Below are positions 5,632-13,287 of a stretch of DNA of 64,000 nt, piece by piece (position 1 is the first letter of the stretch; the number at the start of each line of letters is the position of its first letter). Source of the DNA: Octopus vulgaris (Eukaryota); contig OX597817.1 in assembly GCA_951406725.2 (NCBI GenBank), forward strand, positions 165,726,001-165,790,000. The letters run 5' to 3'. The notes below the pieces were generated by a model. That model did no database searches. It was not told where the DNA came from and saw only the letters and a list, made by a program, of their open reading frames with translations. Both the position numbers and the translations under genes were made by a program.

Positions 5632-5640
<9 letters not shown>

Positions 5641-5816
5641 CATAAAAAGTAACTAAATGGTACAACGAGGCACCGATATTTACTGGAAAATAGATAGCAA
5701 TCGTAGTAAATACGACGCTATTGTAAGCTATACAATAGCGTCGTATTTATTACGATTGCTATTTTCCAGTAAATATCAGTGCCTCGTTGTACCATTTAGT
5801 TATTTTTATATGTATA
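5632..5816. repeat. Long near-perfect palindrome (~90-bp arms, 5-nt loop)
   Basis: aactaaatggtacaacgaggcac...gctattgta, loop agcta, then tacaatagc...gtgcctcgttgtaccatttagtt. Confidence 0.9.
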
Positions 5817-6642: not shown

Positions 6643-6728
6643 CCAATTCAAAAATTAAAATTTAAAATTGATTGGCCTGATACTATATTGTACAATATAT
6701 AATAAATATAATAAATAATATATAATAA

Positions 6729-7139
6729 TACGAAGAAAGGCTGAGGAAGCTCGACCTTTATTCTCTTGAAAAACGCCGCCGCCGTGGTGATCTCATTCTC
6801 GCCCACAACATCATAAGCGGGAAGTGTAACCTCTCGAAAGAGCTGTTCTTCACTCCTGCTCCGGAGCGTCGGCTGCGGGGTCATTCCGAAAAGCTCTACC
6901 TGCGACGATTTCATCTCAATCGAAGGAGAGGAGCTTTCTCCGTCCGGGTTGCGGATCCGTGGAACAAGCTGCCAGATGAGATGGTGAAGATGCCGACGAC
7001 CGCTTTGTTCAAAGCCTCCCTGGACCTCAGGTGGCCTGAACTCTTTACATGAACACCACCCTGTACTTAACTCCATGTCCCCCTACATGGCCTTGCTATT
7101 TGCTTTTGAGCCAAATTAACTAACTAACTAACTAACTAA
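6729..7139 (+). mobile_element. 5'-truncated CR1-type LINE (ORF2 C-terminus, 3'UTR and (AACT)n tail)
   Basis: Stop-free frame 6729-7052: YEERLRKLDLYSLEKRRRRGDLI...RLRGHSEKL...FSVRVADPWNKLP...FKASLD, which carries the typical CR1 C-terminal motifs. Tetranucleotide tail at ~7118-7139. Confidence 0.88.
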
Positions 7140-8997: not shown

Positions 8998-9176
8998 ATT
9001 AGTTATTTTGCAGAGTTCTTTCGTTGGACATTCCTTGACCTCTTGAATGACTATAAGTTTTTCGTGTCTCTTCCGAAACTACAGCAGACCAAACTAGGCT
9101 GGTAAAAGCGATACATAAAAGAATAAAGAAATAATCGCTTTCAGAATAACAGGAAAAGAAAGAGGAACTTACATAC

Positions 9177-9285
9177 CGTTGAGGGATGGTTCAGATTTTA
9201 TCGGAGTTTTGGATTTAGCTAAATTTTTCGGCTTCCGTTTCCTCGTCTGAATACCATCTTTCTTCATGGCCAAAGGTCTGTTCAC
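9177..9285 (-). CDS. GATA4/5/6: GATA4/5/6-class transcription factor, exon encoding the basic region/NLS after the C-finger
   Basis: Translates [36 protein letters not shown](G). TRKRKPK is typical of the GATA4/5/6 class rather than GATA1/2/3 (TRNRK). Acceptor is gtttttgtttttag| at 9286. Donor is ACG|gtatgt at 9176, with an alternative gtaagt at 9172 that would end the exon at 9173. Not in the ORF track. Confidence 0.92.
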
Positions 9286-9438
9286 CTAAAAACAAAAACG
9301 TATTAGAGAGAATTATAGCAAAGAAAAAAAGAAATGATTATTTCGGGAGGTTTTATGATACATCGTCGCTCACGTACAACTATATGTAGGTTGGAATCTA
9401 AACGGATGTGCGTGTTTTGCTTGTTAGACGTTTGTATG

Positions 9439-9473
<35 letters not shown>

Positions 9474-9624
9474 AAGTAGATAAATGAATTATCTTATTAC
9501 GGATAATTCAAATGATAACCGACACCTGGGTAGCAAAAATCACAACAGAAAAAGCACGGTTGAGGTTACGATCACGGGGCCTAAAATCCGTGCCTTAGTG
9601 CGGAAATTTGAAGTTTTATATATT

Positions 9625-9811
9625 TAGTGTAGGAAGAAATGGAGCTGAACGAAGATTTAACAAAATTCCTTTTTATTATATTCTACATATGTTTCAAAGG
9701 CTGCAAAGTCAGCAACCGAATTAGTGACTTTGCAGCCTTTGAAACATATGTAGAATATAATAAAAAGGAATTTTGTTAAATCTTCGTTCAGCTCCATTTC
9801 TTCCTACACTA
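9625..9811. repeat. Perfect inverted repeat (87-bp arms, 13-nt loop) inside a GATA intron
   Basis: 9625-9711 is the exact reverse complement of 9725-9811. Confidence 0.95.
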
Positions 9812-9825
9812 TATATATATATATA

Positions 9826-10049
9826 CGGCGAACTGGCAGAAACGTTAGCACGCCGGGCGAAATGCGTAGCTGTATTTCGTCTGTCGTCACGTTCCGAGTT
9901 CAAATTCCGCCGAGGTCGACTTTGCCTTTCATCCTTTCAGGGTCGATAAATTAAGTACCAGTTACACACTGGGGTCGATATAATCGACTTAATCCGTTTG
10001 TCTGACCTTGTTTGTCCCGTCTGTGTTTAGCCCCTTGTGGGTAGTAAAG

Positions 10050-10054
<5 letters not shown>
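9826..10054 (+). mobile_element. tRNA-derived SINE family B
   Basis: cggcgaactggcagaa...gagttcaaattccgccgaggtcgactttgcctttcatcctttc...gtcgataaattaagtacca. Near-identical copies at 27162, 33018 and 54629. Confidence 0.88.
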
Positions 10055-10125
<71 letters not shown>

Positions 10126-10161
10126 ATATATATATATATAAATAATATATATATATATATA

Positions 10162-10207
<46 letters not shown>

Positions 10208-10475
10208 ATAAATATGCAAACATGTATATGTATGCATGTGTTTTACCTATTAGATTGTATATTTTGGTATGTGTATATATACACGCATATATACACATTT
10301 GTACCATACAAACACGCGGGGACATGGGCACATACACATCCATAAAAGAGGTCGTAAGAGAGAAAAAGAAAGAGAGAGAAGGGAGAGAGAGGGGAAGGGA
10401 GGGAGAGAGGGGGAGGGAGGGGGAGAGGGGGAGGGAGAGAGGGAGAGAAAGATAGACAGAGAGTGTGGTACTTAC

Positions 10476-10601
10476 TCCATGTAATTTAAAGTATAGTCCG
10501 CAGGCATTGCACACAGGTTCTCCTTCGTTGTTACGTCGCCAGAGGGTTGTGGTTGATGTGTGACAATTGGCGCAGGAAAGTCCTGCTCTTCTGGAGCCCG
10601 A
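10476..10601 (-). CDS. GATA4/5/6: GATA4/5/6-class transcription factor, internal exon encoding the C-terminal zinc finger
   Basis: Translates [42 protein letters not shown]. Acceptor is atttccgtttcag| at 10602 and donor GGA|gtaagt at 10475. 126 nt, phase 0 to 0, in frame with both neighbours. Confidence 0.96.
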
Positions 10602-10682
10602 CTGAAACGGAAATACCTAGTTCCATTAGTCCATTGTTTCTTACTAGTATTCGATAATTATTAAGTTCTTATATTTATCTTA

Positions 10683-11051
10683 TCTCTATATATATAAAGC
10701 TGAAGGTGTCTGTGTATGGCAGGTTTGATAGCCTTCGACTAACACTATCTCCCCCGAGACCCTGCGGCGCAAGTTGACCAAAATTGAGAGTATGATAGAA
10801 GAACGCTTGCTCTTCCTTCCGTAGAAGAAAAAATTCAAATCGGACCATGTTAACACCAAAAATTATTTACATCAAAAAGTCGGGTTTTTTCCATGAAAAT
10901 CCCTATTTTTTACGCTTTTTTGACTGCTGTGTCGCCATTTTTCTGTGTATTTCAACCAGAAAAATGTTCACTTAAAGAGAATAACAAGCAACATAATGCA
11001 AAATTTTTACTTTTCAAAAATTCCAATTCTAACGCCGGGCGATACTGCTAG
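10683..11051 (+). mobile_element. Non-autonomous Helitron
   Basis: A|TC start followed by TATATAAA, 3' end aacgccgggcgatactgCTAG|T, no TSD. The terminus is shared with three other copies. Confidence 0.8.
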
Positions 11052-11075
11052 TCTTATATACAAGTGTTGGCCCTT

Positions 11076-11233
11076 GTATTCAGACGAGGAAACCGAAAAA
11101 TGTAGCTAAATCGAAAACTACGATAAAATCCGAACAATCCCTCAACGGTATGTAAGTTCCCCTTTCTTTTACTGTTATTCTGAAAACCAATATTCCATTA
11201 TTCTTTTATGTATCACTTTGACTAGACTATTTT
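11076..11233 (+). pseudogene. Inverted (antisense) partial duplicate of GATA exon 9177-9285 plus its downstream intron
   Basis: The + strand reads gtattcagacgaggaaa------ccgaaaaatgtagct...ctcaacggtatgtaagttcc...tatgtatc, the reverse complement of 9091-9254. About 141/158 matches by hand, with one 6-nt deletion. It lacks the exon's acceptor and first ~31 nt. Confidence 0.93.
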
Positions 11234-11409
11234 GAACTCCAAGCGTAAGTGAACGGATATATATCCAATGATTACTATGAAGGCTACATACAGAATTTCG
11301 ACATTCGACTTGACCGAGGTGGGTCTTGATCTCAGAACGTCAAGGACCATAACTAAATATTACAAGGTCCTTATGCTCTATTGATTTTTATACCGATACT
11401 AATAGTCTG

Positions 11410-12377: not shown

Positions 12378-12588
12378 CTCTTTTAGTGCCTTATAATTTA
12401 ACACACTCACCGGTAAAATTTCCACTCATTTACTTATTCATTTTTATAAAAATTTTCGTTGCGTCTTACAACCGTCTCAATAGTTGTTGAAAAGGTTGCA
12501 AGACGCAACGAAAATTTTGGAAAAATAAATAAGTAAACGAGTGGAAATTTAACCCGTGGGTGTGTTAAATTATAAAGCACAAAAAGAG
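12378..12588. repeat. Degenerate inverted repeat (~100-bp arms)
   Basis: ttataatttaacacac...aaattttcgttgcgtcttacaacc pairs with ggttgcaagacgcaacgaaaattt...gtgtgttaaattataa. Confidence 0.85.

Positions 12589-12990: not shown

Positions 12991-13287
<297 letters not shown>

Follow-up and report, generated by a model that had tools for sequence, protein, structure and literature searches.

The GATA-4-like gene and its inverted exon copy

The window analysed here, a stretch of 64,000 nt of Octopus vulgaris DNA, carries on its minus strand a gene with two GATA fingers and a basic tail that its best matches place as GATA-4-like. In the intron between the N-finger exon and the C-finger exon, 1,821 nt from its source, lies an inverted copy of the end of the gene's own basic-tail exon. 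The features are as follows, in window coordinates.

9090-9254, minus strand: source arm, made up of the final 78 nt of exon (the basic-tail exon), the 5' splice site (9177/9176) and 87 nt of intron
9177-9285, minus strand: basic-tail exon of the GATA-4-like gene, 109 nt, with the TRKRKPK motif; boundaries exact in the RNA-like contigs of runs X8 and X18
9617-9819, no strand assigned: foldback (MITE-like) repeat, a hairpin of ~98 bp inside the loop, 95% self-complementary, -150 kcal/mol
10476-10601, minus strand: exon of the C-terminal zinc finger, 126 nt, phase 0-0, enclosed by the predicted loop; an acceptor 15 nt upstream is used in protein models as well
10683-11051, plus strand: non-autonomous Helitron-like repeat with A/TC ... 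CTAG/T ends (slash at the boundary), from an alignment of 5 copies
11076-11234, plus strand: inverted copy of exon end, donor and intron start, exon-sense on the plus strand and antisense within the minus-strand pre-mRNA
13057-13226, minus strand: N-terminal zinc-finger exon, to which protein models add 14 codons at the 3' end

Over the N-finger exon the identity to P0002, a protein named GATA-4-like of Octopus vulgaris, is 100%, and the basic-tail exon matches residues 427-462 of the same protein at 100%. The last exon of the gene sits upstream of the window, in record L009. The likeness to GATA4/5/6 consists of the two C4 zinc fingers and the basic tail, and the encoded protein is without unusual features. 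GATA4/5/6 genes are mainly endo- and mesodermal, as a general rule that is not specific to octopus. Protein models of the gene carry 14-19 residues inserted between the fingers (13057-13015 and 10616-10602), which alters the inter-finger linker and stems from a longer N-finger exon together with two alternative acceptors 15 nt apart. After the basic exon, isoform P0121 of O. bimaculoides continues through the last exon (L009 7444-7373) in another frame and ends in a short tail; this frame is intact in the present genome as well.

By local alignment the arms 9090-9254 and 11076-11234 are identical at 142 of 159 aligned bases, with one 6-nt gap (self-BLAST E 4e-50). An earlier note, made from the sequence by eye, had described 11076-11233 as the reverse complement of 9091-9254 with about 141/158 matches and its target as the final 78 nt of the basic exon together with ~86 nt of intron, and the alignment confirmed both statements, the intronic part being 87 nt. 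It had also seen no A:C mismatches on the exon side, which holds: the sole A:C mismatch of the two arms is intronic (9101) and the exon part has 0. The 6-nt gap that it located at CGGAAG is present too, but as a telling detail it does not stand, being one unit of an imperfect tandem hexamer (GGAAAC/GGAAGC) absent from the copy and not beyond chance. Loss of one tandem-hexamer unit is typical of slippage. On the plus strand, 11078-11146 of the copy keeps an open frame with the in-frame 6-nt deletion and an intact donor, and its peptide is 80% identical.

A search of the whole genome (2.8 Gb) returned exactly 2 matches, the source arm and the inverted copy. The two copies are close together, on opposite strands and with sharp ends, as in a local inverted duplication, and these two single-copy opposite-strand arms support the origin that the earlier note had proposed, by local inverted duplication of the exon end. 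The right flank of the copy (11235-11400) has 4 matches in the genome and is not a high-copy repeat, and neither junction microhomology nor a second local template for the copy's flanks was found.

The copy is also present in related organisms. It was found with both flanks in two DNA runs, X4 from organism B and X6 from organism C, where in each case a separate contig aligns to 9090-9254 and carries the 6-nt gap and the copy's letters; in X6 the loose ends match the window's flanks on either side of the copy and take in the end of the neighbouring Helitron-like repeat. At the exon locus, 6 of 431 bases differ from the window in X4 and 7 of 406 in X6. Since both runs hold the copy, the duplication is older than the split of these organisms. 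An assembly artefact, which the earlier note had named as a refuting outcome, is hardly conceivable, as the arms are separated by 17 differences and an indel, and it is refuted by the separate copy contigs in X4 and X6 with the window's own flanks.

Repeats and other inverted pairs around the copy

The element at 10683-11051, labelled Helitron-like on the strength of its terminal motifs, belongs to a high-copy family of ~370-400 nt spread over many contigs (931 first-look candidates, 40 scored), and its top copies are 91-95% identical to it. Because its CTAG end lies 24 nt from the copy and the two adjoin each other in X6 too, this neighbour could in principle have made the copy, by capture or by repair at its insertion, which would account for the origin only. 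However, the copy lies outside the termini, is absent from all 5 other aligned copies of the element and has neither dispersed copies nor a third copy in the genome, and thus it is not a Helitron-captured fragment. The element differs by 3.8% from the majority letters of its 5 best copies, a figure that the choice of best matches biases low, against ~7% for the copy, which suggests that the element arrived later. Altogether we regard an origin through this element as very improbable.

The gene also holds several foldback structures. The one at 9617-9819 gave 1310 first-look candidates in the genome, some of them full palindromes and some separated arms, and resembles a MITE family with long terminal inverted repeats. 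Further intronic foldback hairpins of the same gene were seen at 12378-12588 (86% self-complementary, -128 kcal/mol) and 5638-5815 (90%, -118 kcal/mol). In the gene span there are 31 inverted pairs of at least 100 nt, 5 of them, this pair included, with a spacer of at most 3 kb, and intronic dsRNA is therefore ordinary here. A 514-kb sample contained 94 inverted pairs in 21 of its 46 records. We considered whether single-copy inverted duplicates are commonplace, and this was not borne out: 16 other pairs in the sample looked unique, and the 5 of these that were tested were all dispersed repeats. It is thus the single-copy, exon-derived arm that appears to be the less ordinary feature of this locus. 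Two other structures were noted in passing, a 144-codon open frame on the minus strand with its complement at window positions 6700-7080, which by eye looks like a retroelement remnant, and, at L014 2104-4768, a nest of inverted and direct repeats, near-perfect at 98-100% and with a period of ~359 nt, unique within the 514-kb sample.

Predicted duplex, arm divergence and transcripts

In the minimum free energy structure of 9050-11300 folded as minus-strand RNA, which is an equilibrium prediction, 143 of the 159 bases of the copy pair with the exon arm (expected pairs 143.6). The predicted duplex dominates this fold, at -203 kcal/mol as compared to -23 and -21 for the single arms, with uninterrupted runs of up to 34 bp, and the helix would cover the donor and enclose the phase 0-0 C-finger exon. 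An imperfect duplex of ~160 bp looping out ~1.8 kb with the C-finger exon had been proposed in the earlier note, and the fold agrees with it, with ~143 bp paired. The model thus predicts that exon and copy can form a stable duplex within the same pre-mRNA. The acceptor of the intron that holds the copy is at 10602 and the exon target is transcribed 1.35-1.5 kb later, so that the duplex would need this intron to be still attached. Editing with an intronic complement has been described to drop as splicing efficiency rises (PMC6724681, in part).

If the two arms have been kept for pairing, their differences should reflect it. The 17 differences comprise 5 that give G:U, 1 A:C and 11 transversion mismatches, and 12 of the 17 break pairing. 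The exon-facing part holds 5 (of 72 positions) and the intron-facing part 12 (of 87). A model with a frozen exon and freely drifting intron sequences expects 4.98 of the 17 in the exon part; an even split, with 7.7 expected there, is not rejected by a test of low power (p 0.23). The observed 5/17 matches the neutral 1:2 expectation and an even split fits as well, and the distribution is therefore consistent with neutrality and not a proof of it. Missense changes account for three of the five differences in the exon part. The residues concerned do not vary in O. bimaculoides and Argonauta, which places the origin of these changes in the copy, and all three break pairs. The perfect 24-nt block across the donor (9164-9187), to which the earlier note had drawn attention, is real, but chance suffices to explain it (p 0.18 for a perfect run of at least 24 across the donor, p 0.68 for a longest run of at least 24 anywhere), and in both X4 and X6 a wobble breaks it up, X6 having a further change as well.

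Between the window and X4 or X6, 2/246 and 3/246 duplex positions differ, four copy differences near the contig end being derived from totals, as compared to 5/235 and 5/210 in the flanking intron (Fisher p 0.28 and 0.48); the duplex is thus nominally less diverged than its flanks, at low power. Position 9094 pairs with the copy in X4 and X6 and not in the window. Transitions lean to G:U wobble over A:C, 5 to 1 (p 0.11). Taken together, the divergence of the arms appears to fit neutral decay. At ~7% per lineage, against 0.7-1% for the split of organisms A and B, the copy would be roughly 7-10 times older than that split.

Transcripts were examined as assembled contigs that are RNA-like by content; such contigs drop minority variants, and their tissues are unrecorded. 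The 13 RNA-like or untyped runs (X8-X20) hold a word share of 0.24, about the share of the exon itself, and the evidence comes from two of them. The contig comparison spans 9000-9430 at 80% likeness, and loose ends served to identify the joints. One contig from X8 (organism A) and one from X18 (organism B) match 9177-9285 from end to end, each with 0 other letters and 0 gaps; their loose ends carry the end of the C-finger exon on one side and the beginning of the normal next exon on the other. At this likeness no contig of the copy, a retained intron, a skip or a back-splice was found in X8 or X18. Majority editing and majority mis-splicing are hence excluded in these two runs only; since contigs hide minority editing and tissues are unrecorded, low or tissue-limited editing would be compatible with them. 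Among a cluster of 9 proteins 2 end before the fingers, and the 7 that include fingers all have both of them and an identical basic exon, in a 90% cluster that could miss skipped forms.

One function that these data bear on is that of an editing-complementary sequence (ECS), with the copy pairing before splicing and ADAR recoding Lys, Asn or Ile codons in some tissue or stage. The predicted ~143-bp duplex with its runs of up to 34 bp would suit this, of the 32 A>G changes that are possible where the exon is paired, 24 would be missense, the copy has been retained in organisms B and C, and intronic ECSs occur in the upstream or the downstream intron, where they have been sought within 2.5 kb (PMC6724681, in part). 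However, the two RNA-like contigs showed 0 other letters, the basic exon is identical in 7/7 finger-bearing proteins, and no excess conservation of the duplex was detected, at low power, unlike the regions around conserved cephalopod editing sites, which are more conserved (PMC5705066, in part). 'GATA' had 0 matches in the O. bimaculoides recoding table of PMC9989829, a weak count as it concerns another species and many rows are without names. The examined part of the PMC8382921 supplement has no GATA entry, and no open paper found by searching deals, by its title or the beginning of its abstract, with this locus or with octopus GATA4 editing. For squid it has been reported that 94% of recoding sites show <1% editing in samples other than neural ones, and that 91% of the robust sites are neural (PMC9068888, in part). 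Long near-perfect duplexes are, as a general rule, edited promiscuously rather than at one site, which speaks further against a recoding role, and we judge such a role unlikely.

Alternatively, the duplex could tune splicing or output by masking the donor, by skipping of the C-finger exon, or by a circle of the C-finger and basic exons. In the predicted outcomes a retained intron would give a stop two codons in, likely followed by decay, and the circle would measure 235 nt. The position of the helix, over the donor and around a phase 0-0 exon, would allow for this, and in primates exon skipping has been associated with duplexes of inverted Alu copies in introns (PMC13019944, in part). Yet in X8 and X18 the basic exon is joined only to the C-finger exon and the normal next exon, the C-finger is present in 7/7 finger-bearing proteins (with the same reservation about the cluster), and the donor block, within chance, is broken in X4 and X6. 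This effect seems slightly less probable still than recoding. Accordingly, of the consequences proposed in the earlier note, recoding of the basic tail is not supported so far, given the unaltered letters of both contigs; nor is donor masking, with normal joints and no retained-intron contig in X8/X18, or C-finger skipping, as none of the seven proteins lacks the finger.

A probably tolerated duplication and its relation to known systems

Apparent neutral-rate decay together with an unedited, normally spliced exon in two assemblies leads us to the view that the inverted copy is likely a tolerated accident and not an RNA-editing switch, and we consider it fairly probable that it is a one-off local inverted duplication, templated from 1.8 kb away and decaying since. 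A template switch during DNA repair or replication likely pasted the exon end and its donor into the upstream intron, and the copy has likely decayed without selection since its insertion. To act on the exon, it would have to outlast the splicing of its own intron while the polymerase covers another 1.35-1.5 kb, so pairing would likely be transient and A-to-I editing low-level and incidental, as with the duplexes that repeats form within this gene. The duplex may be tolerated because it is rare, brief, or formed in cells with little recoding activity. Counting against this reading are the length of the duplex and its dominance of the fold, the lean to wobble pairs, the finding that single-copy duplicates are not common, and the long retention of the copy.

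It is also conceivable, if improbable, that a recoding or splice-masking element has been caught at its birth, raised by one inverted duplication against the gene's own basic tail and donor. ADAR-rich cells, or cold, would then recode the tail used for DNA binding and nuclear import or divert the transcript, and self-derived antisense exon copies would be a general cephalopod route to editing sites.

The origin of cephalopod recoding sites, and their need for intronic partners, is poorly resolved, and the locus offers a roughly datable natural test, with a ~160-nt complement beside an invariant coding exon, common to close relatives. An edited exon would illustrate how an editing substrate can arise in a single step; an unedited one would mean that even a potential duplex of -200 kcal/mol over an exon can be ignored, and would direct attention to splicing kinetics or to the ADAR levels of the tissue as the filter. 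The locus is real, single-copy and structurally striking; no evidence speaks for a function and some speaks for neutrality, and as matters stand a harmless relic is the more likely reading.

Compared with known systems, the closest likeness is to the intronic ECSs of GRIA2, GRIK2 and FLNB and of Drosophila Syt1, which combine an exon with an intronic complement within ~2.5 kb and need to pair before splicing (PMC6724681 and PMC5705066, each in part). The octopus complement differs in being a recognisable ~160-nt duplicate of the exon that lies two introns upstream, across another exon, and in showing neither excess conservation nor, in the two contigs, editing. Membership among ECSs or exon-flanking repeats needs editing or altered splicing, and the X8 and X18 contigs show none; it also calls for conservation, of which no sign was detected. 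In animals, ADARs act mainly on dsRNA that stems from repeats (PMC9989829, in part), and with Alu-type intronic inverted repeats the locus shares a long-range duplex that encloses an exon (PMC13019944, in part). Alu-type duplexes have been linked to exon skipping, back-splicing and incidental editing, whereas here both arms are single-copy without a repeat family, and one arm is a coding exon with its donor, not intron. Plant MIRNA genes that arose from inverted duplication of their target likewise provide a complement to a transcription factor from its own sequence (bioRxiv 10.1101/682591, in part); the octopus pair, in contrast, is separated by a 1.8-kb spacer rather than closed into a local hairpin, and would act in cis if at all.
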